The notes: generated by a model not told the origin, from the sequence alone. Numbered from the stretch's first letter, positions 20,678 through 57,745 are shown. The stretch: DNA of 64,000 nucleotides from an uncultured Haloferula sp. (GCA_965652295.1 CBFGTS010000013.1:51258-115257), one strand, 5' to 3'. Program-made: numbers and translations.

Positions 20678-20690
20678 ATAGAACGGTTTA
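20678..20690. promoter_or_regulatory. LacI-type operator (degenerate)
   Basis: ATAGAACGGTTTA upstream of the GPH transporter. Confidence 0.5.
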
Positions 20691-20735
20691 TTTTCTTGCT
20701 TGTGGCGGACAAAACCGGCTTGAAACCCCCAACGC

Positions 20736-22256
20736 ATGAATTCTCATCCGGCGCCCGACACCAAGCTCTCCTTCCGGGAGAAAGCAGGCTACAGCTTGGG
20801 AGATGCCTCGGCCAATTTCGTCTTCCAGATGTTTCTGGTGTTTCCCACGGCGTTCTATGTCGACGTGATGGGGATCAGCGCCGCCTCGATGGGCACCATG
20901 CTGTTGCTCGTCCGCTTCAGTGACGCGATCACCGACCCCATCATGGGATTCATCGCCGACCGCACGAAGCATCGCTGGGGAAAATTCAGGCCCTGGCTGC
21001 TGTGGTCCGCCCTGCCCTTCGCCTTGTTGTTCTGGGCCGCCTTCACCGTGCCGTCCGGACTCGGTGACACCGCACGCCTCTGGTACGCCGTCGGCACCTA
21101 CACCTTGCTCATGATGGCCTACACCATGAACAACGTGCCGTATTCCTCGCTCAACGGCGTCATGACGAGCGACGGCATCGAGCGGACCAGCGTGTCCTCC
21201 TACCGGTTCTTCGCGGCGATGTGCGCCGCCTTCATCGTCCAGGGTTTCACCTTGCCGCTGGTGAGCAAGTTCGGCGACGGTGACCCCGCCCGTGGCTGGT
21301 CGGTCACCGTCGCCCTGTTCGCGGGCATTTCGGTGATCTTTTTCATCATCACCTTCTTCAGCGTGAAGGAGCGGGTCGAGCCGCCGGCCAACCAGAAGCC
21401 GGACCTCAAACAGGATTTCAGGGACATCGGACGCAACCGGCCGTGGCTGGCGATGTTCGGCATGACCCTGTTCGTCTTCATCACCCTCGCGCTCCGCGGA
21501 AACGCCGGATACGTGCATTTCAAATACTACCTCGACTCGGAAACGTTGAGGACCTTCATCGAAAGCCTCGGCTTCTATGCCACGCCCACCGCACTGGAGA
21601 GTCCGGGCCTCGGCTTCAAGGCGCTCGATCTCTTCGGGCTGATCCTCAAGCCCGGCGACAGCCCTGTGGCGATCGGCTTCAGCCTCTTCAATATGACCAG
21701 CAGCCTGGTCAACATCATCGGCGTGCTCGCCGCCAAACCGCTGGCGCGGATCTTCGGCAAGAAGATGGTATTCGTCGTCGGACTCGCCGGAGCCGCCCTT
21801 TGCCAATCGTTGGTTTCCTTCGCGTCACCGACGGACATTCCGTGGGTGTTCCTGCTCACCGTCCTCACCAGCATGTGCTACGGCCCCACCATTCCCCTGC
21901 TCTGGGCGATGATCGCGGACACCGCGGACTGGGGAGAGTGGAAGTCCCACCGCCGTTCCACCGGCTTCGTTTTCGCCGGAATGGTCTTCGCGCTGAAGGC
22001 TGGTCTCGGTGTCGGCGGAGCCCTGGCCGGTTGGCTTCTGGCAGCCTACGGCTACAGCCCGGAAACCGCCACCCAGCCCGAGGTTCTCCGCGGCATCCGG
22101 CTGCTCGTGGGTCTCTGGTCGGGAGGATTTTTCTCCGTGGGCGTGGTCTTCATGCTCTTCTATCCGATCACCAAACGGATGGAGCAGCGGATGGCCGAAG
22201 AGCTGGAAAGCCGTCGCCGAGAGGTCATGCCTTCCGCAATGCCCGGGGCGGTCTAG
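20736..22256 (+). CDS. glycoside-pentoside-hexuronide (GPH) MFS symporter
   Basis: EKAGYSLGD, DAITDPIMG..ADRT..RWGKFRPW, WAMIAD..D; xylan context. Confidence 0.9.
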   Translation: MNSHPAPDTKLSFREKAGYSLGDASANFVFQMFLVFPTAFYVDVMGISAASMGTMLLLVRFSDAITDPIMGFIADRTKHRWGKFRPWLLWSALPFALLFWAAFTVPSGLGDTARLWYAVGTYTLLMMAYTMNNVPYSSLNGVMTSDGIERTSVSSYRFFAAMCAAFIVQGFTLPLVSKFGDGDPARGWSVTVALFAGISVIFFIITFFSVKERVEPPANQKPDLKQDFRDIGRNRPWLAMFGMTLFVFITLALRGNAGYVHFKYYLDSETLRTFIESLGFYATPTALESPGLGFKALDLFGLILKPGDSPVAIGFSLFNMTSSLVNIIGVLAAKPLARIFGKKMVFVVGLAGAALCQSLVSFASPTDIPWVFLLTVLTSMCYGPTIPLLWAMIADTADWGEWKSHRRSTGFVFAGMVFALKAGLGVGGALAGWLLAAYGYSPETATQPEVLRGIRLLVGLWSGGFFSVGVVFMLFYPITKRMEQRMAEELESRRREVMPSAMPGAV

Positions 22257-22380
22257 GAACAAAACTCCCACTCCCGCCGAAATCCGATGCGACCGCCGTT
22301 CCACCACCCAACCCAGGCCCCGAAAACCAACGCTGCCGACCGTCTTTCTCCGGCTAAAGCCTTGCAATCCGTCGGTGTAA

Positions 22381-22393
22381 ATTAAACGTTTCA
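22381..22393. promoter_or_regulatory. LacI-type operator
   Basis: ATTAAACGTTTCA just upstream of GH43. Confidence 0.7.
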
Positions 22394-22399
22394 ACCGAG

Positions 22400-24070
22400 A
22401 TGAAGCCAGTCTCCTCCCACTCGTCACGAAGCGTCGCTCCTTCCATGGTGAATTCCTGCCCGGTCAAGCCCGGCGACATTCGGAATCCGATTCTGAAAGG
22501 CTTCAACCCCGATCCCTCGATCCTCCGTGTTGAAAACGACTACTTCATCGCCTGCTCCACCTTCGAGTGGTATCCCGGCGTCCAGATCCATCACTCCCGG
22601 GATTTGGTGAATTGGCACCTGCTGGGCCGCCCGCTCGACCGGCCGGGCCAGCTGGACATGATCGGCAATCCGGATTCCGGCGGCGTCTGGGCACCGTGTC
22701 TTTCCTACGCCAACGGCCTCTACTATCTCATTTACTCCGACATGAAGGCGTGGAAGGGCAACGCCTACAAGGTCGCCCGCAACTACCTCGTCACCGCGCC
22801 CTCCCCGGAGGGTCCGTGGTCGGACCCGGTTTTCCTCAACGCCAGCGGTTTCGATCCCTCGTTTTTCCATGACGACGACGGCCGCATGTGGCTTCTCAAC
22901 ATGCTCTGGGATCACCGCACCGGCCACAATCGCTTCGCCGGCATCCTGCTTCAGGAATTCTGTCCCGAGACCCATCAGCTGATCGGTCCCGTGACGAATA
23001 TCTTCAAAGGCACCGAGCGGGGTCTCGTGGAAGGCCCCCACCTTTACAAACGCAATGGCTGGTACTATCTCCTGACCGCCGAGGGCGGCACCGAGTATCG
23101 CCACGCCTGCACCCTGGCCCGGTCCCGGCGGATCGAGGGACCTTACGAGTTGCACCCGGACGGGCATCTCCTCACTTCGGACGGATCGCCGCAGCTTCCC
23201 TTGCAGAAGGCCGGGCACGGATCGCTGGTGGAAACGCCCGCGGGCGAGTGGTATCTCGCTCACCTTTGCGGTCGCCCGGTCGATGGCAAACACTGCACCC
23301 TGGGCCGGGAAACCGCGCTGCAGAAGTGCGTGTGGGGAGATGACGATTGGCTGCGTCCCAAGCAGGGAGGCACGTCGCCCGACGTGTGTGTCGAAGGTCC
23401 TCTCGGACTCGCAGCCGCGCCGTTTGACTCATCCCCCTGGAACGGCCTCTTCGATGGGCCGGCGCTCGATCTTCATTTCCAGAGCCTGCGTCGCCCGATC
23501 ACGGATGGCTGGCTGAGTCTGACGGAACGCCCGGGATACCTGCGGCTCAAAGGCATGGAGCCCACGGTCAGCTGCTTCCGCCAGAGCCTCATCGCCCGCC
23601 GCGTCCAGGCCTTCGACATCACGGCGGAAACGTCCGTCGAGTTCGATCCCACCAGCTTCCAGCAGATGGCGGGCCTCATCGCCTACTACGACACGGAAAA
23701 CCACTACTACCTGCGGCTCAGTCACGACGAAGACCTCGGGCGCTCCCTTAACATCATCGCCACGGATGCCGGTCACAGCGGTGAAGTGCTTGATGAAGAT
23801 ATCGCCGTCCCCGCGACGGGCCCAATCGGCATGCGGCTGCATTTCAAGAAAACCGAGCTCCGTTTCGAGTTCCGCGCGCCGGAAGGAAGCTGGCAGGCGA
23901 TCGGCCCTGTCCTCAACGGCGCGATCCTTTCCGATGACTACCATCATCTCGGGTTCACCGGAGCGTTCGTAGGCATCTGCTGCCAGGACCTCACCGGACG
24001 GAAGCTCCACGCCGACTTCTCCTGTTTTCATTATTCCGAGAACGACAACGTCCCGGCGGAAGACGGATGA
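22400..24070 (+). CDS. GH43 beta-xylosidase (XynB-like, no signal peptide)
   Basis: [31 protein letters not shown]-terminal beta-sandwich ending FTGAFVG. Confidence 0.9.
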
Positions 24071-24086: not shown

Positions 24087-26237
24087 ATGAAGTTGAACTG
24101 CCGCAGCATCTTGTGGACGCTGGCACTCCTGCCGCTGTCCCTCATCGCGGAGGATGGCTATCGCCTTTGGATGGGCTATGACACCCTGGAGCCCCAGGCA
24201 GTGCGCCGGCTTTCGCCCCACCTGACCGCCCTGTGTGCACCGGGTGCCTCCGAAATCCAGCGATCCACGCGCCGCGAAATCCTCAAAGCCATCCCCGCGC
24301 TGCTGGACACGGATTTTCCCGAGATCGACGCCGTCACGCAGGATGGCGTCGTCGTTGTCGGAACACCCGAAAGCTCTCCCACCATCGCCCGGTTGGAACT
24401 GGCCGACGAACTGGCAGGGATCGGACCTTCCGGGTTCCTGATTCGCTCCACGGAGGTCGAAGGTCACCGCGTGACGGTGATCGCGGCTCCCGACGACCAA
24501 GGCGCTCTCTACGGCGCTTTCGCTTTCCTCCGCCACCTCCAGAACGGCCACCCTCTCGACGCCCTTTCCCTGAAAGAACGGCCACGATTCCAGCTGCGCC
24601 TGCTCAATCACTGGGACAACCTCGATGGCACGATCGAGCGGGGCTATGCCGGCAGCTCCCTTTGGCCATGGGCCGAGCTACCGGACGAGGTGCCCCCCCG
24701 GCTCACCGACTACGCCCGCGCCAATGCCTCGGTCGGACTGAACGGCACCGTGCTCAACAACGTCAATGCCAGCTCCAGGAGCCTCACGCCGGAGTATCTT
24801 GAGAAAGCCGCAGCGATCGCCGGCACCCTGCGACCCTACGGCATCCGCGTGTTTCTCAGCGCCCGGTTTTCCTCACCCATCGAACTCGGCGGACTCGACA
24901 CCGCGGACCCGGCCGACCCGCGCGTGCTCGCCTGGTGGGAGAAAAAGGTCTCGGAGATCTACTCGTTCATTCCCGACTTCGGCGGCTTTCTCGTGAAGGC
25001 GAACAGCGAGGGCCAACCCGGCCCCCTCACCTACGGTCGCACCCATGCCGACGGTGCCAACATGCTTGCCGCCGCCCTGCGGCCCCATGGCGGCATCGTG
25101 ATGTGGCGGGCCTTCGTCTACGACCCGGCACCCGGTTCCGACCGCATCGCCCAGGCTTACGATGCGATGAAGCCGCTTGATGGCGGGTTCGCGCCCAATG
25201 TCATCGTCCAGGTCAAGAACGGCCCGCTCGACTTCCAGCCGCGCGAACCTTTCCACCCCTTGTTCGGAGGCATGGCGAAATCCCAGATCATGCCCGAACT
25301 GCAGATCACCCAGGAATACCTCGGCCACTCCCGGCAGCTCGCCTACCTCGCGCCCATGTGGGAGGAGTTCTTCAACGCCGACACCTTTGCGCAAGGCAAG
25401 GGATCCATCGTGGCGGAGACCGTGGATGGGTCCCTCTTTCCCCAGAAACTGACCGCCATCGCCGGCGTCGCCAACACGGGCAGCGACCGCAACTGGACCG
25501 GCCATCCCCTCGCCCAGAGCAACTGGTATGCCTTCGGCCGCCTCGCATGGAATCCCGACCTCGATCCGGAAAGCATCGCGCGGGAATGGATCACCATGAC
25601 CCTCACCCGCGACGAAACGGCCGTAGCGACCCTGGCTGAGCTGTTGATGGAATCCCACGAAGCCGTCGTGAACTACTCGATGCCCCTCGGCCTTCACCAC
25701 CTCATGTGGGAAGGCCACCACTACGGTCCCCAGCCGTGGTGCGACCATCTCCCGCGGGCCGATTGGAACCCGACCTACTTCCATCGTGCCGCCGCGGATG
25801 GCATCGGCTTCGATCGCACAAAATCCGGCAGCAACGCCGTCGCCCAGTACCACCCCGAGGTCCGCGCACGCTTCTCCGATCCCTCCACCTGTCCCGATGC
25901 ATACCTCCTCTGGTTCCACCACCTGCCGTGGGATTTCAAAATGAAGTCAGGCAAGACCCTCTGGGACGAACTCTGTCTTCACTACCAGCAGGGCGTGGAC
26001 TGGATGGGCGAAGCCCGCGACCAGTGGTCGTCCGTGAAGGATCAGATCCATCCGGACATTCATGCGGAGGTCGGTCGACGGCTTGCCATCCAGCAGCGGG
26101 ATGCCATCCGCTGGCGCGATGCATGCCTCCTCTACTTCCAGACGTTCTCCGGTCTGCCGTTCCCTTCACGAGTCGGACCCGTGGTAACTCCGCTTGCAGA
26201 AGCCAGAACCATCGATCCCCTCGAATCGGATCGCTGA
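24087..26237 (+). CDS. aguA: GH67 alpha-glucuronidase
   Basis: [45 protein letters not shown]. Confidence 0.93.
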
Positions 26238-26339: not shown

Positions 26340-27059
26340 TCAGGCCCGGCGGCGGCGAACCAGTGCCGGGAGGGCGAACGCGCCAAGCAGCACCATGGAG
26401 CTGCTCGGTTCCGGGACGGCGGTGAAGCCCACGGAAACCTCGCCCCACTGCCAACCTCCGTTCCATCCGACCTGCTGCGATCCGGCCACGCCGCCAAGAC
26501 CCGAGCCGGCGGCTACCGAACCACCGCCGATTCCCGAGTTGGCATCCGCCCAGCCGTCCTTGTCGACGACGGAGGTGGAGAAGGGATTCACCGTGGCGTC
26601 GTCGGACGGTCCGTTGTTCACGCCCAGGAAGTTCACGATGTACTGGTTGTCCGCCCCTGTAGCAATCGTTTGCCCGCTTCCGGTGGCAACAGGTGCAGCC
26701 GTATCCACCCCACTCAGCTCATAGATGAAGTAGGCCGTGTTGGCGGAGGCCGAGCCAAAGCTGTGAACGAAACTGGCGGACGTTCCCGCATTGTGGAAGT
26801 AAGCCAGAGAAGTCCGGCTGTTCTGCACCGTGCCGTCTGCCGCGACACCGTTGTAGGTGGCACCGACCAGGCTGTAGTCGGCGTCAGCATAGGTTCCGAA
26901 CACCAAAGTGTTCCCTGGACTGGCCAACGTGTAGCTGACGGTGCCCGTTCCCGTGGTTGCGTCGAAGCTCCCGCTCTGGGTGTTGACGACCGAAATGGCC
27001 GCGGAGGCGGTGCCAACAATGGTCAGACTGATCAATGTAGAGATTGCAGATGCCTTCAT
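26340..27059 (-). CDS. PEP-CTERM surface protein
   Basis: signal peptide MKASAIS..; VPEPS + TM + RRRR. Confidence 0.9.
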   Translation of the reverse strand: MKASAISTLISLTIVGTASAAISVVNTQSGSFDATTGTGTVSYTLASPGNTLVFGTYADADYSLVGATYNGVAADGTVQNSRTSLAYFHNAGTSASFVHSFGSASANTAYFIYELSGVDTAAPVATGSGQTIATGADNQYIVNFLGVNNGPSDDATVNPFSTSVVDKDGWADANSGIGGGSVAAGSGLGGVAGSQQVGWNGGWQWGEVSVGFTAVPEPSSSMVLLGAFALPALVRRRRA

Positions 27060-27145: not shown

Positions 27146-27191
27146 ATTAAACGTTACAGCTTCGGCCGCAAGCAAAAAATAGAACGTTTCA
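27146..27191. promoter_or_regulatory. two LacI-type operators upstream of PEP-CTERM gene
   Basis: ATTAAACGTTACA (27146-27158) and ATAGAACGTTTCA (27179-27191). Confidence 0.7.
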
Positions 27192-27237
27192 TTCCTGATG
27201 GGCGTTCCGTCTCGGAAGCGACCCTTCCGGCACAAGC

Positions 27238-28368
27238 TCAATGGCCTTTTCCCAACTCCACCACCGCCTGGAACGCGGGTTTAGGGTCGCGGTTCCGGTC
27301 GAAGAGCAGCGGGTGGTTCGTCCGGCCCCGGATCGGAAAGCCATTGAGCCACGACTGACCGTCGTTCAAACCCCAGAACGTGATGCGATCGATGCTCCGG
27401 CGGTGCTTCAGATAGACTTCGAAGATCTCGCGGTATCGCTCGGCCAGTTTTTCCTGCATCTCTTCCGGCAGACCCTCCGTGTAGGGGTTGGTGGCGGAAT
27501 CCCCCTCCTCGCGGCGGCTGATGTCGGCGTTGCCGAAAGCACCACGGTTGGGAAGCACATCGACATCGAGCTCCGTGATCATCACTTTCAGCCGCAGCCC
27601 GGCGAATGCCTTGATCGTCTTTTCGATTTCGTCGACCGATGGATGGTTCAGGTGAAAGTGGGACTGGGTGCCGATCCCATCGATCGGAACTCCCCGGCGC
27701 AGCAGCCCACGCACGAGCTTCACGCAGTTCTCGCGCTTCCGTTCGTTTTCGAGACCATAGTCGTTGTAGTAGAGCTCCGCCTTGGGGTCGGCCTCGCGGG
27801 CGAAACGGAACGCGTGGTCGATGAAATCATCGCCAATGATCCGACGCCACGGCGAGTCCCGGAGGATGTCGTCGCCCCCGTCGGAAAGAGCCTCGTTCAC
27901 CACGTCCCAGCCCTTCACCTTCCCCTTGTAGCGGCCGGCGACTTTGAAAATGTGCTCCTTCATCCGCGCCAGCAGCTCCTCCCGCGTCGCGTCCCCGCCG
28001 TCCTCCCCTGCGAAGACCCAGCGCGGCGTCTGGCTGTGCCAGACGAGCGTGTGTCCGATCACCTCCATCCGGTGTTTCCGTGCGAACCGGATGTACTCGT
28101 CCGCCGCATCGAAGCGATACTCCTTCGGCTCCGGATGCAGCGACTGCCACTTCATGTCGTTTTCCGCGGTGAGCGACGAAAACTGTTCCCCGGCAAGCTC
28201 TCCTGCCGCCTGGTTCTGTCCATTCACCATGGAGGTGTTGAGAGCCACTCCGATCGAAAAGTCGTTCTTGAAAACCTCCCTCAGCGTTGGCTCCGCGGCA
28301 GCGGCAATGCCGCAGGCGATGGAGACGGCGGCGACGGAGGACAGGGCGGATTGGAATCGTTGGATCAT
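27238..28368 (-). CDS. GH10 endo-1,4-beta-xylanase
   Basis: ENDMKW, GHTLVWHSQ, WDVVNE, YYNDY, ITELD; signal peptide. Confidence 0.93.
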   Translation of the reverse strand: MIQRFQSALSSVAAVSIACGIAAAAEPTLREVFKNDFSIGVALNTSMVNGQNQAAGELAGEQFSSLTAENDMKWQSLHPEPKEYRFDAADEYIRFARKHRMEVIGHTLVWHSQTPRWVFAGEDGGDATREELLARMKEHIFKVAGRYKGKVKGWDVVNEALSDGGDDILRDSPWRRIIGDDFIDHAFRFAREADPKAELYYNDYGLENERKRENCVKLVRGLLRRGVPIDGIGTQSHFHLNHPSVDEIEKTIKAFAGLRLKVMITELDVDVLPNRGAFGNADISRREEGDSATNPYTEGLPEEMQEKLAERYREIFEVYLKHRRSIDRITFWGLNDGQSWLNGFPIRGRTNHPLLFDRNRDPKPAFQAVVELGKGH

Positions 28369-28408: not shown

Positions 28409-29311
28409 TCATTTGAAAAGGCGCCCGGCGAAGTAGTGGAGACTGCTGGCCCAGTGGGCGGGATCATGACCGTGACCGTCCACGTGCCAGACGTGGGGAA
28501 CATCGTGCTCCTTCAGGTAGCGGTGCGTATCCTGGCTGTAGTTGATCAGCCCGTCCTTGTTGCCACAGGTGATCACCAGCAGCTTGATCTTGTCCCTGGC
28601 TGCGGCGGGATCGGGCACCAGCTCCGCAGCGGGCCGGGTGTTCGGAGCGGCGGAAAAGGCACCGATCCACGCAAAGGAATCCAAGTGGGTCAGCCCGAAG
28701 TTCAAGGTTTGCCCGCCGCCCATCGACAGCCCCGCCAAAGCCCGGTGCTCAGGGCCCGCCTTCGTTTGAAACTCCTTCTCGATCGCCGGGATCACGTCCT
28801 CCAGCAGATCGCGTTCGAACACCGCGAAGGCCGGAGCCGAAGCGAACACGTCTCCTTCCGCCCGGTCGTTCTTCTGCGCCCGGCCGTTGGGCATGACCAC
28901 GATCATCGGAACCGCCTTCTTCGCCGCGATCAGATTGTCCATCAATGCATCCACCGCCGCGAATCGCTGCCACTCCGTCTCATCCCCTCCGATCCCATGC
29001 AGCAGATAGAGCACCGGATACCGATCCTCCTTTGAATAGCCGGGCGGCGTGTACACCTGCATCTTCCGCGTCGTGCCGACGGTCTTCGACTCGTATTCCA
29101 CCATCTGCAACCTCCCGGCGGGAATTTCCGGATTCCGCCGGTTGAAGCCCTCCGGCGGCGCTTCGAACGCAGGTCGGTCATCCGGCTGCAGCGCAATGGG
29201 ACGTGCGAACGCCTCCGCAGGGTCCGGCCCTTTCGTGTCCTGAGCCCCAGCGGGGTGGACTCCGACGAGAGGGGCTAGAATCGAGCCGACTACGAGGATC
29301 TTCACGCGCAT
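28409..29311 (-). CDS. CE1-type esterase (feruloyl/acetylxylan esterase-like)
   Basis: VYTPPGY, YLLHGIGG, GLSMGG nucleophile elbow; start uncertain (ATGs at 29311/29314/29317). Confidence 0.85.
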   Translation of the reverse strand: MRVKILVVGSILAPLVGVHPAGAQDTKGPDPAEAFARPIALQPDDRPAFEAPPEGFNRRNPEIPAGRLQMVEYESKTVGTTRKMQVYTPPGYSKEDRYPVLYLLHGIGGDETEWQRFAAVDALMDNLIAAKKAVPMIVVMPNGRAQKNDRAEGDVFASAPAFAVFERDLLEDVIPAIEKEFQTKAGPEHRALAGLSMGGGQTLNFGLTHLDSFAWIGAFSAAPNTRPAAELVPDPAAARDKIKLLVITCGNKDGLINYSQDTHRYLKEHDVPHVWHVDGHGHDPAHWASSLHYFAGRLFK

Positions 29312-29315
29312 CATC

Positions 29316-29328
29316 ATTAAACGTTTCA
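29316..29328. promoter_or_regulatory. LacI-type operator
   Basis: ATTAAACGTTTCA at the start of the CE1-GH10 unit. Confidence 0.7.
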
Positions 29329-29526
29329 CTGCCCTGAGTCCTATCGATCCATTCCCGGGAAATCAAGTTCCGTCCCTGAGTTCTCAATGACATCCTTCCT
29401 TACGCGGCCGAACGACCGTTTCGGCGGTCCGAGCCGCCCTTGGGAAGCCTCCGGGCTCGGAGAAAAGGGCTTTGCCAAACGCGCTTGAGCGCGGGGGTCG
29501 GATTTTTCTTGATCGGGCCAAGACTC

Positions 29527-29539
29527 TTAAACGTTCTAT
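29527..29539. promoter_or_regulatory. LacI-type operator
   Basis: TTAAACGTTCTAT (reverse complement ATAGAACGTTTAA) 4 bp before ATG 29544. Confidence 0.65.
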
Positions 29540-35500: not shown

Positions 35501-35513
35501 ATTAAACGCTTCA
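35501..35513. promoter_or_regulatory. LacI-type operator
   Basis: ATTAAACGCTTCA upstream of the GH43-CBM6/GH43 unit. Confidence 0.65.
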
Positions 35514-38807: not shown

Positions 38808-38862
38808 GGGTTGAGGCGGGTTGAAAGGAGCGTCTTATCAGGAGACTCCTCCGAAGAAAGAT

Positions 38863-43837: not shown

Positions 43838-43922
43838 CGGTGGATCGGTAAGCGACCTGATGCCTGGCCACAAGGGCTCCCGTCCCAGATCCCAGCCGGA
43901 GCCCTCAAAAAATCATCCTGAC

Positions 43923-45478: not shown

Positions 45479-45491
45479 CTTAATCGTTTTA
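45479..45491. promoter_or_regulatory. LacI-type operator (degenerate)
   Basis: CTTAATCGTTTTA upstream of GH51. Confidence 0.55.
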
Positions 45492-45549
45492 TTTCGACCT
45501 ACCTTCAACCGACCTGTCCTTCCGTCCTTTTCTCATGCTTCTTCGATTG

Positions 45550-47565: not shown

Positions 47566-47585
47566 AACGCCTGTTGCGCCCACCC

Positions 47586-49833: not shown

Positions 49834-52794
49834 TCAAGGGGCCTCCAAGGGTGGCTCTGCCGGCGGACCGAAATAAGTCGGCTTCACCTCGCCGCGATGG
49901 ACGATCACCTTCTCCAAGACGACTCCCGGATCGACCATCCAGACCTTCACCGTATGCACTCCCGGATCATCGATCCGGTGAACCGAGTGAAGGCTGCGGG
50001 CATTGTCCCGCACCCAGTCGCCCCAGTTTCGGATCGCCGGGGCGCTGGGATGGGGGTTCTCCACTTCCTGGTCCTCGAAGGCATCAAGCACCCGGGGAGC
50101 CTCGTCATCGATCGAAACGGCCAAGCTCACCCCGCGCTCCGGCTGAAAGTTCAAGGTCGGTCCCGTCACCAGCTCCAGCCGGATCTCACCCGCCTCGGGA
50201 ACCAGAATCGGATACTCCAGGCGAGGTGAATTCCGGGGCGGCTTCACGCTCTCCGCCGTGACCGGAAAAACACTCATCCCCGATTTCCCCCGCCCATAGT
50301 CAGGGATGGCTTCCCATCGGACATCTCCCGCGGCGAACTTGGCCGTCGCGTCCTCCGCTGCGATCGCGAACGATCCCGTGAGCCCACCATACGCTTTCGC
50401 GCCCTCCCAACGGTCGGACCGGACCGCCTTCACATGCACCGGCACCGTTTCACCACCCGGTCGGGAAATGGAGATCGTCGCCCGGTTCTCTCCCTCAGGA
50501 ACGTGAGCCCAATCGATCGCCACACTCAGACACTGGTCCTGCTCCACCTCTCCGGCGTCCTCGCTAAGGCGGACCCACGGCTGATCTGCTTTCGCCTGGA
50601 AGCGAAAGCCCGCCCTGCCGCGGCGGAAGATCGTGATCTCCCGGACCTGGCGGTTGATCGAATCGAAGGGCGGCAGCGACGCCAGCTCGTCCGCTCCCGG
50701 CCAGGCGAGTTCGGAGCCCTCCACCGCCACACCCATGGCCGCGCCCGGCGGCACCTCGATCTCCACCACCTCCGGCATGATATCCCTCGGCGGCTCATTC
50801 CAGCTCGTGTAGCCGATCCGCGTCTGGGCCATCATGTGGTTCCACTTTCCATCATTCAGCCGATGATAGGCTTCCGAAAGCTCGCGGTTCCGCGCGAACA
50901 ACTCGTGAGCCCGCTCCGCCTCCCGATTCGTGCCCGCCCGTCCCTGGCTTGCGTGGAGCCGGTTGAGGCCCACTTGAATGTACAGCTCCACCACCGTCGC
51001 CGAGGCCTTGGTCGGGTAGAGCACCAGTTGGAAGAATGCATCGCGGAAATCTTCGGGAAGCTCCTCATGGATCCGTTCCGCTTTCTCCACAATCTCGCGC
51101 CAAGCTTTCAAAACCCTCTCGGCCTCGCGGTCATGCACCAGGCTGAACGTGGTCGGCTCCAACAACTCCGGCTTTCTCCAGCCGTTGTATTTCGCGTATC
51201 GGGAAACGATGTCGGCGATCTCCGCGGCATGCCCGGCACCGAATTCCCGCTCGGCCCATCGTTCCGTGAACTCCGCGATCTTCTCCTTCGGCAGGGCGTC
51301 CGGGTTCCAGGCCATCCGAAGGAAGAACTCGATCGGTAGCTCCATCGGCTTCAGGTCACCCACATTCACGATCCAGATACGATCCGCGCCGTACTTGTGG
51401 GCCAGATTCATCTGCTCCCAGATTTTCGGCAGCGGATTGGTATTGATCCAGCGATAGGAGCGTGGACCGCCGACGTAGTCGAAATGGTAATAGATGCCGG
51501 CCCCGCCGGATCTTCTGCGCTCCGCTTCCGTCGGCAAACGCCGGAGATTCCCCCAGTTGTCGTCGCACCACAGCAGCGTCACGTCGTCCGGCACCCGCAT
51601 CCCATGGTCGTAGTAATCGGACACCTCCTTGTAGAGCGCCCATACCTGCGGAACCTTCGCCACGTCGCGGTTCAAGTGCGTGGCGATCAGCTTCCGTTGG
51701 TCGGCCACGATCTCCTCCAGCAGCCTCGTGTTCGCCTGCATCTCACCGCCTTCCACCATCGGCTCGTCGCCGTCGCCCCGCATCCCCAGGGTGATGAGGT
51801 TCTCGTAATCCTTGTTCCGCTCCAGGCCGTCGCTCCAGAAGTCGTAAAGCCCCTTGCGGTTGGTGGCGTAGTTCCACTCGCCGTTTCCGATCTCCTCCTT
51901 GCGCTTCGTCCACTCCTTCTGCGCCCGCATCATCGGTTCATGGTGGGAGGTTCCCATGACGATACCGTACTCGTCCGCCACCTTCGGATTCAACGGATCG
52001 TCTTCATTGAACGCCTTCCCCCACATCGCCGGCCACAGGTAGTTGCCGCGCAGCCGGAGAATCAGCTCGAAGACGTAGGAATACATCTCCGAGTTGATCC
52101 CTCCGAACTTCTCACGCGCCCATCCTCCGAAGGCCGGCTCCTCGTCATTGATGAAAATCCCGCGATACTTCACCGCCGGCGGTCCCTGCATATATCTCCC
52201 CTTTTTGATCCAGACCACCTCCCGCGTTTTCACCGGTACATCCGCCCACCAGTGCCATGGGGAAACCCCGAGCTGCTCGCAGATTTCGTAGATCCCGTAC
52301 ATGGTGCCCCGCGGATCGCTGCCAGCCACCACCAATGCCTCGGAGATACCGGGTGCCGGATTCTTGAGGGTTACGATGGCGAACGACTCCCACTTCCCAT
52401 GAATCCCGTCCACATCCAGCGCTCCGGATTTCGCCAGACGGTCGATCAACCGGTGACGACCCAGCGTCCCGGCGATGACCATGGCGGGAACGTCGGGCAG
52501 ATGGTCCACCACCTGCTCCGGTCGACGCCCGGTGACCCGCTCAAGATCGTTCTGCAAGTCGCCCGCCACACGTAACACACCGGGATGGTCCTGGGAATCG
52601 AGCACCACCACAGCGGCGTTCGTTCCCACGGACAGGGGGAAATCCGACGGTGCCGGCTGGCCCGTCACAAAGTCGCCAACAAATCCAAGGCTGGGACTCG
52701 CCATTGCGGCCGAAGCCAGACCGCCTATGACCATCATGGCAAACACATGGGCCCGCTGGTGAGCCGTCGCCATTTGAAGAATCCGTCGTGTCAT
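49834..52794 (-). CDS. GH115 alpha-(4-O-methyl)-glucuronidase
   Basis: GVSPW.WWAD, YRGIFINDE, PAMW, GTSHHEPM, RGDGD, DDNWG, YYHFDYVG; start uncertain. Confidence 0.92.
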   Translation of the reverse strand: MTRRILQMATAHQRAHVFAMMVIGGLASAAMASPSLGFVGDFVTGQPAPSDFPLSVGTNAAVVVLDSQDHPGVLRVAGDLQNDLERVTGRRPEQVVDHLPDVPAMVIAGTLGRHRLIDRLAKSGALDVDGIHGKWESFAIVTLKNPAPGISEALVVAGSDPRGTMYGIYEICEQLGVSPWHWWADVPVKTREVVWIKKGRYMQGPPAVKYRGIFINDEEPAFGGWAREKFGGINSEMYSYVFELILRLRGNYLWPAMWGKAFNEDDPLNPKVADEYGIVMGTSHHEPMMRAQKEWTKRKEEIGNGEWNYATNRKGLYDFWSDGLERNKDYENLITLGMRGDGDEPMVEGGEMQANTRLLEEIVADQRKLIATHLNRDVAKVPQVWALYKEVSDYYDHGMRVPDDVTLLWCDDNWGNLRRLPTEAERRRSGGAGIYYHFDYVGGPRSYRWINTNPLPKIWEQMNLAHKYGADRIWIVNVGDLKPMELPIEFFLRMAWNPDALPKEKIAEFTERWAEREFGAGHAAEIADIVSRYAKYNGWRKPELLEPTTFSLVHDREAERVLKAWREIVEKAERIHEELPEDFRDAFFQLVLYPTKASATVVELYIQVGLNRLHASQGRAGTNREAERAHELFARNRELSEAYHRLNDGKWNHMMAQTRIGYTSWNEPPRDIMPEVVEIEVPPGAAMGVAVEGSELAWPGADELASLPPFDSINRQVREITIFRRGRAGFRFQAKADQPWVRLSEDAGEVEQDQCLSVAIDWAHVPEGENRATISISRPGGETVPVHVKAVRSDRWEGAKAYGGLTGSFAIAAEDATAKFAAGDVRWEAIPDYGRGKSGMSVFPVTAESVKPPRNSPRLEYPILVPEAGEIRLELVTGPTLNFQPERGVSLAVSIDDEAPRVLDAFEDQEVENPHPSAPAIRNWGDWVRDNARSLHSVHRIDDPGVHTVKVWMVDPGVVLEKVIVHRGEVKPTYFGPPAEPPLEAP

Positions 52795-52931
52795 GTCTCT
52801 TTCGGTGAAACCGGTTCCAAGGTCAGAAATCGCGGCGAACGGGAGGAGGCAAAACCCTGGCACCTCCACCCGTCGCCGCGAACCCCGGAAAAACTGTGAT
52901 CTCAATCGATGCCCTTCCGAGAGCAGGCCGA

Positions 52932-55900
52932 TCAAGGTTCAGGTTGGGTTCCTTCGAGACGTCCGAACAAGCGGCCCAATTCGTTCAGGCTCTTCGGGAG
53001 CCTGACGGTGACTGCATCATAATCCGAGCCGGAAGCACCCAGGTCCTCCCCGACAGTGACTTCGACCCCATCACCGTCCGTGGCACCCGTGGCTCCGATG
53101 ATCACGTCGTTCCAGATCCCAAGATCCGTGGACCACTGGAATGTCAGCACCGAATCCGATTCCGAAAGGTCATAACGTTCGAACGTAAGGATGAGATGGG
53201 TTTCATCCTCCGTCGTGGTCACCAGTGCTTCATCGAAGCTGAGTGGATCGCCGTTGAGCTGATATTCGAGGAGGTTGGGATATCCGTCGCTATCGGGATT
53301 GTCCTCCGCTCCGTCGTTCACTGCCGGGGTCAAGCCCGATGTAGCCGCCCATCCTTCGTATCCGACCACGGTGCCGATGAAGCTCAGCATGCCGGTGAGT
53401 TCGTCGAATTGGAAGTCGCCGCTGGCGTCGGTCCAGATCCGCTCGCCCACCACTCCCGCGTCTGCGGTGAAACCCGAGCCGGTCACCGTGAAGCCCGCGT
53501 CGTAGTTCACCAGTGAGGTGCTCACGATGTTCCACGTCGCTCCATTCGTGGGCGTCGTCGCCGACAGATCGATGTCGAGCGTGCCCGCGAGATTGATCGT
53601 GCCGATTCCGCCGATCGAGTTCGAAACGCCGGTCGCGCCGGGAGCGATGTGGTAAACGCTGCCTGCACCGGGACTCAAGGTCCCGTTCACCACCAGGCTC
53701 GCCGTGCTACCCAGGGTGATATCGCCCGAATACGGATTCGTCGCGCTGTCGAACTGGATCGCCGCCGGCCCCATCAGGTCCAACGCGCCCGCACCGGACA
53801 CCGGAGCGAGGAAGGCCACCGGACCATTCTGAGCCACAATCTCCGAAGCGGTCTGGAACTCGACGTTTCCTCCAAGGGTAACCAATCCCCCCGCATTGAC
53901 GATCTGAGCGATCCGGGGGATGGAAAACTCATCGGAAAAGACATAGTCCGCATTGAAGGTGCTGTTATCTCCCTTCAGGGACAGCTGCCCGGCAATCACC
54001 AACTTGGATCCGGCGAAGGTCTGGGATGTGGTGGCAACATCGGGCGTCCGAAGCACCAATCCGAACGGAACCAGATAGTTCTTGCCCGCCACCGGCGCGA
54101 CCGCATTCGCCCAATTGGTGCCCGCATTGAACGACGTTTGCCCGAAGCCATCCGTGGCCACCAGCAGGATGCCGTCGAAAAGCCCGTCACCGTTCGTGTC
54201 CCGGAAGTCGTTCCCGTCCGCGGGATCGGTTTGGTCAGCGAACTCGGAAGCATGATCGGCTCCGTCATTATCAAAGTCGTTCGAACCATTGAAACTCCGC
54301 CACAACGGGTTCTCCGGATTCGACCCGACACCGAGCACCGGCTCGAAGTAGGTGAACTCCCAGAAATCCGGAAGTTGATCACCATCCACATCCCGTCCCG
54401 AGAACTCATCCAAAGGATCGGAGCCGTTCTGGAACTCCTCAAGATCGATGTCGAAGTCCCCGTCCTGATTGGTGTCCACACCCCCATCGCGGAGCGTGGA
54501 GTCCGCCGTCGTCAGGTCGCCGAACAAGGCAAGTTCCCAGCCGTCGGAGATGCCGTCCCCGTCAAGGTCAGGGCTTGAATTCAAATCGGTGGGGTCGGTG
54601 CCTTCGGTTTCCTCAACCTCGTTGGACACGAAGTCTCCGTCGTAATCCTCCGATCCGATCTGCAGCAGGTTGTTGAAGAAGAGCATCTCCCACACGTCGT
54701 CCAGGTCGTCGTTGTCGACGTCGAGAGTGGTCGACGCGATGTCGTTCGGATTGCTTTCATCGATCAGCTCAAGGTCGTCGTCGTCGCCATCGTTATCCGT
54801 ATCCACACCCACGGCCGCGGTGGTCGTGTTGCCGAAACGGGCGAGTTCCCATTGATCCGGAAAGCCATCGTCATCAGCGTCCGTGCGGTCGATGTTCTCC
54901 GGACCGAGCAACTGGAAGAGTTCACGCTCGGTTTCCGTCAACGCTCCCTTCCAGATCCGAACCTCATCGTAGGAGGCGGATGCCGTCGCATCGGGCCACA
55001 TCGAGCGGCCCAAATAGCAAACGTTGTCGAGGAGAGCACGCAGGTCGGAACCCGAGTTGAACGTGCCTTTTCCACCATAGAGCGGATGACCGGCTGCCTG
55101 GCTGTCGCTGGCCGGGGCGGAGTACCATGTCACCGTGGCTCCCTGGGTGAGAATCCCATTGGTATAGATAGCCGGGACGATGGTCATGACGATGTGGTAG
55201 GGGATCGTCTCGACGTAGGGGGCATTGGTCCCGGCGACCGTGCCATTGCCACTCCATGCGACCTGATCGTCATTTATCTCGGTTCCGGTCGACCACGTCA
55301 TGCGCAGCGATCCATTGGCACCAGGGTCGCCATTGGCATCCGTGCCGAAGGCGAAAATCCGGCTCCAGTTCCCGACGAACTGCTGGGTCGCCCAAAGCTC
55401 GATCGTGACCGGCTTCACACCCCCGTCCTGCAGGTTGCTCAGCAGATGGCTTCCCAGGAGGATGTAGTCACTCGTGGCTTTGGCGCCGCCGTAGAGCTCG
55501 ATGCTCTCGGGATTCTGCACCGACGAGAGCCCCAGGGAACCCGCATCGTCGTTTTGAATCTGGGCGTCGCTGCCTCCCACCGAATCGGTGAGGTCACCAT
55601 TGAAACTCCAGCGATGGGCAAGAATGGCGTGCTCCGGCGTCCAGTTCGGATCCTGCGGATCCGAGCCGGCCAGGAATTCCGAAAGGTTGGAAAAGTCGTC
55701 CACATCCTCGTCATCCCCCGAATCATCCACTCCGACTTGCAAGCCTTGGGCGGTTTCCCATCCATCTGCCATGCCGTCCGGCTCGATGTCGGGCCATGAA
55801 GAGGCATTGGCAGGCAAGGTGCCGCCGTTGATTTCATCAATGTTCGAGCTGAAATCCCCGTCGAAATCCCCGTCCGGAAGCTGGTTCAGATTTCCAAAGG

Positions 55901-56834
55901 CAGCGACCTCGTCGTCATCGGACCATCCGTCCCCGTCGATATCTCCAGGAACCGAGACCGGATCGGTCGGGTTCGAGCCGGCGGTGAACTCCGCGAGATC
56001 CGTGTGGGTATCTCCGTCCCAGTCTCCGGAACCGTCACCGGATCCCGACGGAGATCCGATCGTCCCGTCGAGCTGGGTGAGTTCCGTGATATCGTCCCAG
56101 CCGAGTTCCCAGGCATCCAGCAGACCGTCACCATCCGAATCGGGATCGGCGGTCGTCGGAAAGGCCAGCGAAACCTCGCCCGTCGCCGAGCCATTGCTAT
56201 ACAGCCAGCCAAGCGTCTGGCTCCCCATGGCACCGGAATAGCCATAGCCATGCGCCAGTGCTCCTCCGCCCACGCCGCCGTTGATATCCAAAACCCCGAC
56301 ATTCATGCCCGAAATGATCGAACCCACGGCAGGCACGGTGCCGGCTCCTGTGCCGAAATTGATACCGGTGAAGTCGACCACGAACTTCGAGGCGCCGGTC
56401 GTGACGATCGTGGCCGCCGTCCCGGCATCCACCGAAGCCGCACCACCCGAGGTGTCGATACCCCCTAGCTCATAAACAAACAGGCCGGTGTTGGTCGCAT
56501 TGGTCCCTGCAATCGTATAGGTGATGGCGACCGAGGCAGGGGCCGGACTCGGGAGGAAGTAGCAGGCCGTCGTGGTCCGGTTGTCCGTGGCGGATTTCAC
56601 CGCCGCATTTCCGTTGAAGGTCACCACCGGAGAGGTGACCGAGTGGTCGTTGTAGATCCCCACGACGATGACGTTCGAACTCGCGGGATTCGTCAGATTG
56701 TAGGTGAACGTCGCGCTACCGGGGGTAGTGGAGGTGTTGGTCAGCAAACTCCCCGTGCCCATCACCTGGGCAGGAAGGGTGGAAGTGCCTGCCATGGAAC
56801 AAGCCACAGCGAGAACGATGGTTTTCAACTTCAT
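52932..56834 (-). CDS. 1300-aa secreted surface protein (novel N-domain, Asp-rich TSP3-like repeats, LamG, passenger-like region)
   Basis: signal peptide; about 15 D-x-D-x-D-G-like repeats; HRWSF..TIELW..YDEVRIW LamG; C-terminal STDL..W..FGRL domain. Confidence 0.85.
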   Translation of the reverse strand: MKLKTIVLAVACSMAGTSTLPAQVMGTGSLLTNTSTTPGSATFTYNLTNPASSNVIVVGIYNDHSVTSPVVTFNGNAAVKSATDNRTTTACYFLPSPAPASVAITYTIAGTNATNTGLFVYELGGIDTSGGAASVDAGTAATIVTTGASKFVVDFTGINFGTGAGTVPAVGSIISGMNVGVLDINGGVGGGALAHGYGYSGAMGSQTLGWLYSNGSATGEVSLAFPTTADPDSDGDGLLDAWELGWDDITELTQLDGTIGSPSGSGDGSGDWDGDTHTDLAEFTAGSNPTDPVSVPGDIDGDGWSDDDEVAAFGNLNQLPDGDFDGDFSSNIDEINGGTLPANASSWPDIEPDGMADGWETAQGLQVGVDDSGDDEDVDDFSNLSEFLAGSDPQDPNWTPEHAILAHRWSFNGDLTDSVGGSDAQIQNDDAGSLGLSSVQNPESIELYGGAKATSDYILLGSHLLSNLQDGGVKPVTIELWATQQFVGNWSRIFAFGTDANGDPGANGSLRMTWSTGTEINDDQVAWSGNGTVAGTNAPYVETIPYHIVMTIVPAIYTNGILTQGATVTWYSAPASDSQAAGHPLYGGKGTFNSGSDLRALLDNVCYLGRSMWPDATASASYDEVRIWKGALTETERELFQLLGPENIDRTDADDDGFPDQWELARFGNTTTAAVGVDTDNDGDDDDLELIDESNPNDIASTTLDVDNDDLDDVWEMLFFNNLLQIGSEDYDGDFVSNEVEETEGTDPTDLNSSPDLDGDGISDGWELALFGDLTTADSTLRDGGVDTNQDGDFDIDLEEFQNGSDPLDEFSGRDVDGDQLPDFWEFTYFEPVLGVGSNPENPLWRSFNGSNDFDNDGADHASEFADQTDPADGNDFRDTNGDGLFDGILLVATDGFGQTSFNAGTNWANAVAPVAGKNYLVPFGLVLRTPDVATTSQTFAGSKLVIAGQLSLKGDNSTFNADYVFSDEFSIPRIAQIVNAGGLVTLGGNVEFQTASEIVAQNGPVAFLAPVSGAGALDLMGPAAIQFDSATNPYSGDITLGSTASLVVNGTLSPGAGSVYHIAPGATGVSNSIGGIGTINLAGTLDIDLSATTPTNGATWNIVSTSLVNYDAGFTVTGSGFTADAGVVGERIWTDASGDFQFDELTGMLSFIGTVVGYEGWAATSGLTPAVNDGAEDNPDSDGYPNLLEYQLNGDPLSFDEALVTTTEDETHLILTFERYDLSESDSVLTFQWSTDLGIWNDVIIGATGATDGDGVEVTVGEDLGASGSDYDAVTVRLPKSLNELGRLFGRLEGTQPEP

Positions 56835-56973
56835 GGGTTTTCTGGGGTTTTTAGAAACTCTGAGCCACGTGTCCGTGAGGCATGAACCTCTTCGAGAGCG
56901 TCCGGATGAAGGAGCACGGTTTCCGAGCGTGCTGGAGTAGATGCTCCATCCCTCAGGGTGCCGTCAAGCTCAT

Positions 56974-56986
56974 ATTAATCGTTTCA
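56974..56986. promoter_or_regulatory. LacI-type operator
   Basis: ATTAATCGTTTCA upstream of the surface protein-GH115-SGNH unit. Confidence 0.65.
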
Positions 56987-57129
56987 TCGAAAGATCCGTC
57001 GGGCAATGCATTTCGCCTTCCGAGACCCTTCAATCCGGGCTCGTGAGAGGCTTGAGAGCCTCCCCCCGCAGCAAACCTCAATGACCACCTCTTTCGACTC
57101 CTCCTCCGGCGTCTACCGCGAGCCCATCG

Positions 57130-57480
57130 TCATTCCCGCCGTCTGGCGCACTGATCTCGACCGCTCCGAGCCGTGCGCCTAGCCGGATTTTGACGGCTAT
57201 TTTCCCGACGTCCGCCGGCTTCGCCTGACCACCCCGAGGCTCGCTGACGATCATCGTTCCCGATGAGGCCCCATTCTTCCGCGTCGGCACGCCCCGCTCT
57301 CCCGATTGGAAACTGATGTCGAAGATGGCCGTGACCTACCCTCCGGGGAACCTCGCCGTTCTGGGAGACATTCCGGCCATCGGCACCAAGTTCCAGACCG
57401 CGGGCCAGACCGGGCTCCAGACCACCACTCTCCTGGTCACCGCTCCCTATCCGGGAACCGTCTATCTCCGCTCGATCAGT
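57130..57480 (+). pseudogene. degraded C-terminal fragment of a GH2-type glycoside hydrolase
   Basis: reads EPCA*PDFDGYFPDVRRLRLTT (TAG at 57180-57182), frameshift near 57235, then YPPGNLAVLGDIPAIGTKF..GTVYLR; resembles GH2 C-termini as I recall them. Confidence 0.55.
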
Positions 57481-57732
57481 GAGCGTTCCCCCGGGAAAGC
57501 ATCTCTGCAATGGGGGGTGTTAAAACCACCACTTAGAGCGATGGACACGGGCTTCACGTCGCCTGCATTCTTCATGATGTCCCGGAGACCAGAGACCGAT
57601 CCAGGAATCATGACGAGCCGACCCAAATTCCGTTGTTTCACCGCCTGCCTCGCCGCCACGGCATCCGTGTTCGCCGGCGACAGCCCGTACTCCAGCTCGT
57701 CTGGCACGACGATCGCCTGCCAACGCAGGATC

Positions 57733-57745
57733 ATAGAACGTTTTA
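57733..57745. promoter_or_regulatory. LacI-type operator
   Basis: ATAGAACGTTTTA about 100 bp upstream of the Verru_Chthon-A-like gene. Confidence 0.6.

Follow-up and report, generated by a model that had tools for sequence, protein, structure and literature searches.

Which genes of a verrucomicrobial xylan cluster are switched together, and by which regulator? The question is raised by a 64,000-nucleotide (nt) stretch from an uncultured Haloferula sp., a soil bacterium of Haloferula/Luteolibacter type (GCA_965652295.1 CBFGTS010000013.1:51258-115257), referred to below as the window and corresponding to positions 51258-115257 of contig C13 in the genome numbered G000. An earlier note, made from this sequence alone, had read ten copies of a CG-centred palindrome as LacI-type operators of a xylan regulon which, besides a transporter and xylanolytic enzymes, takes in a PEP-CTERM protein, a cytochrome c-PA14/propeller pair, a 1300-amino-acid (aa) surface protein and a pilin-like protein. 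The analysis described here covered the G000 genome (4.37 Mb, 63% GC, 98%-complete) and compared it with relatives, namely 35 genus genomes (G-numbers) and individual loci (L-numbers, including the metagenome contig L112). Genes of G000 were called with our own hexamer model, which gave about 3,240 genes with approximate starts. With moderate confidence we take the palindrome, AATTAAACGTTTAATT, to be the operator of a LacI protein encoded on another contig (C5:134325), which would repress about a dozen xylan promoters, including those of the 1300-aa protein and of a PEP-CTERM twin that would both bind glycan at the cell surface.

A shared palindrome upstream of the xylan genes

The ten sites in the window are as follows.

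20678..20691, operator before the GPH/MFS symporter gene
22381..22394, operator before the GH43 xylosidase gene, at the spot where relatives have lacI
27146..27159, operator sharing bases with the -10-like TTTAAT (27151-27146) that belongs to the PEP-CTERM gene
27179..27192, operator directly before the -35-like TTGCTT (27175-27170) of this same gene
29316..29329, operator where the esterase-GH10 operon begins
29526..29539, operator-like site, 5 nt ahead of the cytochrome c-PA14 start
35501..35514, operator upstream of the GH43-CBM6 gene
45479..45492, operator ahead of the GH51-CE6 operon
56974..56987, operator ahead of the 1300-aa/GH115/GDSL operon
57733..57746, operator upstream of the pilin-like gene

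All ten copies listed in the earlier note are thus present. Five fit its consensus exactly and four others do so on the + strand with one mismatch; the copy it had placed at 29527 fits best on the minus strand, its + strand 14-mer being 29526-29539. A central CG is found in 10 of 10 sites, and 8-12 of 16 positions are self-complementary. Genome-wide, the five exact consensus matches all lie inside the 64-kb window, as do 11 of the 24 matches with one mismatch (10 distinct sites).

Two matrices were used for scoring. The first was symmetric and was built from the ten window sites; scored leave-one-out, these reach 16.1-23.6 bits, values equalled or exceeded at just 1-16 genome positions. The second, relatives-only matrix came from iterative palindromic alignment of 21 upstream regions of relatives and has the consensus AATTAAACGTTTAATT, obtained under the palindrome constraint; several of the 21 regions were picked after the first matrix had shown hits, so that it is not fully blind. 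At a threshold of at least 8 bits it recovers the ten sites in the window and nothing besides, and at 17 bits or more 7 of its 13 genome hits fall in the window, against 0.19 expected. The ten sites being the sole window positions of at least 8 bits, the sulfatase/ECF block at 35835-45326 has no site, in agreement with the earlier note. Intergenic hits of at least 13 bits number 9 in 3,757 nt of the cluster versus 8 in 597,782 nt elsewhere, and 500 composition-preserving shuffles of 18 intergenic segments gave a mean of 0.014 hits (maximum 1) versus 7 observed. The motif is therefore strongly enriched in the window rather than equally frequent before unrelated genes, and because a 17-bit site precedes only 16 of the 3,242 called genes, it is not a general promoter element.

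The position of the sites suits repression, as judged from predicted promoter boxes. Those at 20678, 27179 and 57733 are each followed by a T-tract and a TTGCTT -35-like box, the 27146 site covers its TTTAAT -10-like box, and the 22381 site follows a TTGCAA box. The claim that each copy stands at the 5' end of a transcription unit is largely borne out; the 22381 copy lies between two same-strand genes, and those at 29316 and 35501 overlap possible start codons. Since the G046 ortholog of the GH43-CBM6 protein aligns from Met21, the 35501 site probably lies upstream of the true start.

The sites are conserved before orthologs. The seven loci orthologous to 22381 all score 24-27 bits, the G046 orthologs of the symporter and GH43-CBM6 genes have sites of 25 bits (with the same downstream TTTTCTTGC) and 24 bits, respectively, and the 29316 site has counterparts in G044 (17.1 bits) and L112 (17.9 bits). 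Counting a degenerate pattern across the genus gave a match in 31 of 35 genomes and hence poor separation; only the position beside orthologs is informative.

With the window-trained matrix five held-out hits reach at least 17.5 bits, three of them before plausible members and two overlapping MKRF starts.

C9:62242, before a PEP-CTERM gene and a GH43-CBM6-GH30 enzyme (operon)
C9:66212, before a 1200-aa paralog of the 1300-aa protein
C2:222658, between GH98-GH95 and a divergent Gfo/Idh/MocA gene
C1:38662 (before GH39) and C15:85320, overlapping ATG/GTG-AAA-CG (MKRF) starts

In Bacteroides ovatus, complex xylan is a substrate of GH98 and GH95 enzymes. The C1:38662 hit, with a site at 0 of 5 orthologs, is treated as an MKRF coincidence. 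At C2:74673, upstream of a TIM-barrel/Gfo-Idh-MocA/ThuA operon, the relatives' matrix gives 21 bits; because only 1 of 30 orthologous loci (that of G000 itself) has the site, this oxidative glycoside pathway was kept out of the regulon. A genus-wide block upstream of the same operon (L123-L152), ATGTCGCA...GGATTTT...GAAAGG...CAATCT, is unrelated to the xylan operator.

A candidate regulator on another contig

The genome encodes five LacI proteins and none of the genes lies in the window, as had been stated. The gene called for by the earlier note, a lacI associated with the same site, was located via relatives as G000:C5:134325-135368. Its product has a PF00356 helix-turn-helix (38 bits, cut-off 27; 34.7 bits in a second search) and a C-terminal effector domain with PF13377 and PF00532 above cut-off, and its relatives in the PDB are CcpA, RbsR and PurR. 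Orthologs are found in 9 of the 35 genus genomes. In G046, G044, G007, G016, G002, G050 and contig L112 the lacI ortholog lies directly upstream of the GH43 xylosidase gene, with a 24-27-bit site between the two that corresponds to window site 22381. It is this arrangement that singles out C5:134325 among the five LacI genes as the likely regulator. The orthologs are 65-75% identical, and the recognition helix LSTAAVSQALR is the same in all copies. In G013 and G024 the only copy lies outside any xylan cluster, and in G000 the gene appears to have moved out of it. Seven genomes have a canonical GH10 gene and no C5-type LacI; in the six that were fetched, one of which has only 129 nt upstream before the contig end, no site was found near GH10. 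Enrichment, conservation before orthologs and the lacI ortholog beside the sites in relatives together support a LacI-type operator of a xylan regulon.

Xylan genes under the probable operator

The genes for uptake and xylan breakdown in the window are the following.

20736..22256, + strand, glycoside-pentoside-hexuronide (GPH) cation symporter (PF13347; TIGR00792 351 bits, cut-off 231)
22400..24070, + strand, GH43 beta-xylosidase-type enzyme (GH43 + GH43_C2), no evident signal peptide
24087..26237, + strand, GH67 alpha-glucuronidase
27238..28368, - strand, GH10 endo-xylanase (PF00331, E 1e-105)
28409..29317, - strand, CE1-type esterase, feruloyl/acetyl xylan esterase-like (PF00756; partial NF041944)
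32500..34071, - strand, GH43 + GH43_C2 enzyme
34105..35454, - strand, GH43-CBM6 arabinoxylan-type enzyme, start set at Met21 of a longer open reading frame ending at 35514
45535..47565, + strand, GH51-type alpha-L-arabinofuranosidase
47562..48434, + strand, SASA/CE6-type acetyl esterase
48424..49656, - strand, GDSL/SGNH esterase
49834..52935, - strand, GH115 alpha-glucuronidase with an uncertain start; follows the 1300-aa gene directly, an order also found in G046

Leaving the symporter aside, GH43, GH67, GH10, CE1, GH51, CE6, GDSL and GH115 make up, in CAZy terms, a glucuronoarabinoxylan debranching set, and xylo-oligosaccharides are the likely substrate of the symporter. A search of 41 relatives found GH67 in two; the G046 copy is absent from this count since G046 was outside that draw.

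Two predicted surface proteins sharing one domain

The predicted regulon also reaches two proteins with a domain in common.

52932..56834, - strand, 1300-aa secreted protein with no recognised catalytic domain
26340..27059, - strand, 239-aa PEP-CTERM protein, a stand-alone copy of the 1300-aa protein's N-terminal domain (34% identity, E 8e-24)

The 1300-aa protein consists of a signal peptide, a 208-aa all-beta domain (56148-56771, here the cargo domain), acidic DxDxD repeats, a LamG-like domain, more repeats, a beta-rich region and a C-terminal domain that is common to 13 G000 proteins (12 others). Fourteen DxDxD motifs surround the LamG-like domain. Its membership of the regulon is strongly supported, with a site of 13.6-24.8 bits within 400 nt in 6 of 6 orthologs examined (that of G046 is cut by the contig end) versus 21 of 3199 background genes. 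The N-terminal domain occurs in 7 of the 35 genus genomes, the same seven that have the LacI-linked cluster, and named homologs exist in the cultured relatives Haloferula sp. BvORR071 and Luteolibacter arcticus.

In the 239-aa protein a signal peptide, VPEP, a hydrophobic stretch (transmembrane helix) and a basic tail are visible, and PF07589 scores 16.6 bits, below its cut-off of 20.7. The inclusion of this gene in the regulon is moderately supported: two sites flank its -35/-10-like pair, and a second PEP-CTERM gene with a site is present in G000 and G046.

The cargo domain is predicted to be all-beta with a predicted local distance difference test (pLDDT) value of 88.6. A Foldseek search against the PDB gave no clear match (TM-score at most 0.32), and the ESM Atlas yielded unnamed, mostly viral clusters (0.92-0.93). 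Fusions are seen to GH115, in P0061, and, in one other homolog, to a pectin-lyase-like domain. Aeoliella sp. SH292, a planctomycete, has it at the head of a PEP-CTERM protein encoded between lacI-MFS-GH3 and DUF1559-GH98, and a further copy (L118) has no xylan context. The planctomycete locus L117:14436-20375 combines the cargo-domain protein, a DUF1559 prepilin and a GH98 enzyme 60% identical to that of G000, which suggests that xylan loci may have been exchanged within the PVC superphylum.

The held-out sites on C9 precede a second twin pair. The large proteins of the two pairs are 49% identical over 719 aligned positions of their common chassis, with unrelated N-terminal domains, and the C9 PEP-CTERM protein, which passes TIGR02595 (21.1 bits, cut-off 16), matches the domain of its neighbour at 58%. 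The C9 domain is found in 2 of 35 genomes. Its predicted structure (pLDDT 86) resembles SGBP-B, CBM11, CBM22 and CBM15 folds at Z 10-12, the best matches being SGBP-B (7k44; Z 12.3, root-mean-square deviation 3.1, 154 of 182 residues aligned) and CBM11 (Z 11.8); the likeness is one of fold only, a sequence search of the PDB having returned nothing for this domain. Glycan binding by the cargo domains is a supported guess, stronger for the C9 domain than for that of the window. Tyr-x-Asp, Arg, Glu-Leu and Asn positions are invariant in these domains.

Such pairing recurs in the genome. Of 68 strict PEP-CTERM proteins, 23 have a homolog that is not a PEP-CTERM protein, and in 13 of the 23 the best such homolog lies within 30 kb, against 0.28 expected. 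Pairs of a PEP-CTERM protein and an adjacent secreted protein of 520-1300 aa, with 23-81% identity, are seen at C1:419381-422780, C1:582144-591796, C5:177180-180713 and C11:160404-164402, and several twin pairs follow ECF-sigma/kinase-like genes. The genome has one exosortase (PF09721, 167 bits). Across G000, and in the window at 52935-53369, many long secreted proteins have an [FY]x[RQ][LVI]-type motif at their end (found C-terminally in 68 of 1,121 versus 4 at an internal control position, with a pattern written after seeing examples), which is a possible undescribed sorting signal.

The cytochrome pair and the pilin-like gene

Two further additions proposed in the earlier note fared less well. 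One is a pair of genes next to the esterase-GH10 operon.

29544..30992, + strand, secreted cytochrome c (CxxCH)-PA14 protein
31000..32448, + strand, DUF7133-like propeller protein, partner of the cytochrome

The G000 site before this pair is strong by the first matrix and the weakest of the ten by the relatives-only matrix (11.8 bits), and it may alternatively serve the divergent esterase promoter as an auxiliary operator. The pair is near-core, in 32 of 35 genomes, and its site overlaps an ACGTT that is part of a wider conserved element also present in genomes without the LacI; G013 has the site and no xylan cluster. Membership is accordingly uncertain. A proximal site of at least 11 bits is nevertheless found before the cytochrome gene in 5 of 8 LacI-positive versus 1 of 24 LacI-negative genomes. 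Because a different ThuA-DUF7133-cytochrome protein carries a site in three relatives (G044, G016 and G050), there may be an oxidative role. Compared with TIGR02604 (PVC-type heme-binding CxxCH protein), the window propeller, encoded separately from its cytochrome, scores 29.2 bits against a cut-off of 122.2, and the site-bearing G044 protein passes with 219 bits. No solved relative of the propeller was found in a PDB sequence search. Upstream of cytochrome c-PA14 genes of many genus members (L054-L073, L094-L106) lies an element TGTCAT...GGATAG-N~16-ACGTT, possibly an alternative-sigma promoter.

The other addition is the pilin-like gene at the far end of the cluster.

57135..57676, + strand, broken duplicate (82% identity to C3:100981-101535, which comprises a GH2 gene's 3' end and the beginning of a GH12 gene), marking a rearrangement
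57843..61502, + strand, 1219-aa protein with a prepilin-like G|FALIV N-terminus, of a multi-copy family
61499..62212, + strand, exported partner of the pilin-like family, about 230 aa

Here membership as a conserved feature is not supported, and the earlier note was probably wrong to count the gene as a core part. The protein has five paralogs in G000 and homologs in 29 of 35 genomes, and none of the 16 homologs with a called start has a site; with the three loci lacking a called start, no position above 10 bits was found at the 19 homolog loci. The closest homologs lie among pectin methylesterase and GH28 genes. Because the 57733 site adjoins the broken duplicate and has the same T-tract/TTGCTT context as the symporter promoter, it looks recently captured, and acquisition at the rearrangement is likely. 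In an independent soil run, contigs cover 30 of 30 bins of 56000-59500 and show no joint, with no single piece across the junction, which argues weakly against misassembly there. Two-gene cassettes of a pilin-like protein (about 1150-1200 aa) and a partner of about 230 aa recur at C1:27311-38676, C2:115335, C5:80709 and C6:72064, and one cassette adjoins a GH39 gene in G000 and G046.

In the Verru_Chthon cassette, adjacent genes encode proteins B, C and D. Cassette protein A (TIGR02600) resembles the window protein in its length of about 1200 aa, its prepilin-like N-terminus and its several paralogs per genome, whereas the window protein matches, at its N-terminus, only the first 59 of 1296 model positions (23.4 bits, cut-off 332.3) and belongs to a two-gene cassette with a 230-aa partner. 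The neighbours at 61499 and 62329 match none of B, C and D, and upstream lies the broken duplicate.

Alternative explanations

Several observations weigh against a xylan regulon governed by the C5:134325 LacI with glycan-binding twins. No upstream site was found at xylA, araA, araB or the C5 lacI itself in G000 (the best score before G000 xylA is 2.1 bits; G002 xylA has 17.4 bits), nor at a second hemicellulase locus on C3 (GH2, GH12, GH5, GH62, CE1, GH43). There are four other LacI genes in G000; sites of up to 26.4 bits in G045, a genome without C5-type LacI, flank a different LacI and non-xylan genes, and G001 and G047 have single high-scoring sites without evident xylan context. On account of these three genomes the motif alone does not name the regulator, and since the distant LacI of G045 has the same sites, the motif would be common to more than one LacI. 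The seven genomes that share the scaffold and the LacI-linked cluster are kin with, probably, one shared gene block and are not independent evidence; G002 has the block but no GH10 hit, and seven genomes have GH10 without the scaffold. The window PEP-CTERM twin occurs in G000 only among the 35 genomes. The best solved match of the window cargo domain is to generic jelly rolls (Z 6.5 over 93 residues, within the first 102 residues), in structure the domain comes closest to uncharacterised and minor-tail phage proteins (TM-score 0.5-0.67), and 47 of 70 representatives of its homologs end in a PEP-CTERM-like motif, ordinary PEP-CTERM proteins of unknown context. The CBM-like fold of the C9 domain is also that of a non-glycan binder, a complex I assembly factor (Z 11.5).

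Some of these points could mean that a different or broader sugar regulator, either another LacI or a catabolite-type repressor, reads the operator and that C5:134325 is a passenger of the cluster: there are five LacI genes to choose from, the motif accompanies an unrelated LacI in G045, genomes without C5-type LacI have it at their cytochrome-PA14 genes, and the G000 lacI has no site of its own. We consider this quite unlikely, given an ortholog embedded beside the site in six genomes and L112, an invariant recognition helix, GH10 loci that have no site where the C5-type LacI is missing, and a strong site at too few genes (16 of 3,242) for a global regulator. There is a negligible probability that AT-rich promoter parts or MKRL/MKRF start-codon coincidences account for the sites, an explanation we rejected on genome counts and on positional and shuffle controls. 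Two window sites and the held-out C1:38662 and C15:85320 hits do overlap ATG/GTG-AAA-CG starts, and the GH39 case among them is not conserved; yet eight window sites are entirely intergenic, TTA makes up 0.3% of leucine codons (1.5% within the first ten codons), CGTTT occurs in just 2 of 52 MKR starts, ACGTT has no positional peak before 3,240 starts, and conservation before orthologs contradicts such an origin.

Regulon and regulator may also be as described while the twin proteins (1300-aa and PEP-CTERM) act as general adhesins or matrix components, co-induced so that cells adhere to plant particles or to one another, and recognise no xylan. The phage-like fold of the window domain, which is not that of a known CBM, would agree with this, as would the genome-wide habit of twinning, several pairs lying beside ECF-sigma/kinase-like genes rather than genes for carbohydrate-active enzymes (as judged from N-terminal sequences). 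Set against it are the fusions that join the domain, in other organisms, with GH115 and with a pectin-lyase-like domain, its place beside GH98 in a planctomycete and the CBM/SGBP-B-like fold of the second twin domain, and we think it unlikely. A still more inclusive version, that of the earlier note, makes the pilin-like protein and the cytochrome pair integral to a machine for xylan capture, secretion and oxidation. It can draw on strong G000 sites (22.6 bits for the pilin-like gene, 19.1 bits for the cytochrome gene), on the bias of the cytochrome site towards LacI-positive genomes and the different heme-c/DUF7133 protein with a site in three of them, on the DUF1559 prepilin of the Aeoliella locus and on the link of type IV-like pili to glycan use in the same family (PMC13174399). 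With a site at none of 16 pilin-like homologs, the closest of them among pectin genes, with the G000 site abutting a broken duplicate, a cytochrome pair in 32 of 35 genomes, an ACGTT that is partly genus-wide and LacI-positive genomes that are kin, we regard it as very improbable.

Neighbouring genes and loci

The operator-free insert at 35835-45326 contains genes for an ECF sigma factor, a FecR-LamG anti-sigma protein, a PEP-CTERM protein, two sulfatases and an unannotated 571-aa secreted protein, and is predicted to be a second regulatory unit inside the xylan cluster. Upstream, window 10086-18359 is a nitrous oxide reductase cluster with nosZ (13447-15435), nosD, an ABC transporter, and azurin-like, SCO1-CusF and hemerythrin/ScdA genes. 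In window 62329-64000, after the pilin-like pair, come a DUF4861/BT3233-like gene (310 bits, cut-off 320) and, at the contig end, tRNA-Pro (63850-63926). In G046 phage- or integrative-element-like genes lie between the xylan cluster and an ara/xyl catabolic operon (L010-L011, G046:C45:17153-28402). In L041 (G045:C99) a different LacI is accompanied by near-identical operators before SSS transporter, GH38 and URO-D-like genes.

Comparison with known systems

In Bacteroides, SGBPs are lipoproteins that serve a SusC/D pair. SGBP-B (PDB 7k44, 5e7g) and CBM11 resemble the predicted surface proteins described here in being non-catalytic and co-regulated with hemicellulases, and the C9 domain has the same beta-sandwich fold (Z 11-12). 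The differences are a PEP-CTERM or unnamed C-terminal domain as anchor, an identity of 14-16%, no SusD found, and a window domain that is not SGBP-like. Unlike a Bacteroidetes Sus-type polysaccharide utilization locus, the window locus was not found to contain a SusC/SusD pair. No match to SusD (PF07980) was found in the genome, and TonB receptors are absent from the window. The SusC/D-independent glycan capture proposed in the earlier note thus fits the genome; that these particular proteins capture or take up glycan is something we infer. The xylan systems of Caulobacter and Xanthomonas include TonB-dependent receptors, whereas here 0 of 11 TonB receptors in the genome have a site.

XylR, the LacI-family regulator of Caulobacter and Xanthomonas, has as its xyl-box the operator TGGTAGCGCTAACA and covers xylA (PMC10380989). 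Likened by description, the two systems have in common a LacI repressor, a CG-centred 14-bp operator and xylan genes, with release by a xylan-derived sugar there; they differ in the operator (TGGTAGCGCTAACA there versus AATTAAACGTTTAATT here, unlike outside the central CG) and in xylA, which has no site in G000 and a 17-bit site in G002. XynR of Anaerocellum/Caldicellulosiruptor bescii, also of the LacI family, has a regulon over several loci, with xylan enzymes and uptake transporters and with xylose isomerase under other control (PMC12285236); the likeness is one of description, not of motif, and that organism is a Gram-positive thermophile for which no PEP-CTERM or scaffold pair is described. 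The symporter beside a xylosidase under a xylose-type repressor recalls Bacillus subtilis xynP-xynB, where the repressor, as given there, is a ROK-family XylR (PMC12285236). From the same bacterial family, and again compared by description, come MUL1/MUL2 of Akkermansiaceae, which likewise represent SusC/D-independent glycan handling with pilus-like parts; MUL2 differs in being a conserved four-gene pilus locus for fucose-rich glycans, with no LacI regulon or PEP-CTERM/scaffold twins described (PMC13174399). In Akkermansia, PEP-CTERM proteins have been found that differ with carbon source (PMC4960237).

Proposed model and its significance

The model that we favour, of a LacI-controlled xylan regulon with glycan-binding twins, builds on direct observations: the sites, their enrichment and conservation before orthologs, lacI in the cluster of six relatives, the shared twin domain and the C9 pair. 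A LacI dimer would block sigma-70-type promoters, given that a site is found either directly before a -35-like box or on top of the spacer/-10. Secreted GH10, GH98, GH30, GH43, GH51, GH67 and GH115 enzymes and esterases would release xylo-oligosaccharides, which the GPH symporter would import and the GH43 xylosidase cut, with xylose or a short xylo-oligosaccharide as the signal that frees the promoters from the repressor. The large acidic scaffold, which probably binds Ca2+, and its membrane-anchored twin would keep the polymer close to the enzymes, much like a Bacteroides SGBP. The lacI gene would have left the cluster in G000, and the pilin-like gene would have come under the operator late, at the rearrangement. 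The regulon does not account for the passage of oligosaccharides across the outer membrane.

The regulon is of a known type, with ordinary regulatory logic, in a lineage where the literature searched described none; that search, mostly without subscription papers, turned up no account of either the regulon or the twin architecture. Polysaccharide uptake by Verrucomicrobiota outside Akkermansia, in aquatic members, has been called largely understudied (PMC13174399). Of most interest among the results is the twin surface module, with domains that appear exchangeable. For the majority of PEP-CTERM proteins no ligand has been assigned. From a sharp operator and a named candidate regulator it can be predicted which uncharacterised genes respond to xylan, and two unannotated surface domains gain a candidate ligand. 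We tentatively put forward the possibility that SusC/D-less Verrucomicrobia and planctomycetes capture polysaccharides by twin modules, in which a PEP-CTERM anchor and a secreted Ca2+-repeat scaffold share one glycan-binding domain that is swapped between loci on a common chassis. If this were so, the xylan operator would name the ligand of two domains, one of them representing a new family of binding domains with a fold akin to that of phage tail proteins, the 13 pairs of neighbours would form a readable substrate catalogue, and the shared RxFxR-like C-terminal end would be an undescribed sorting signal.

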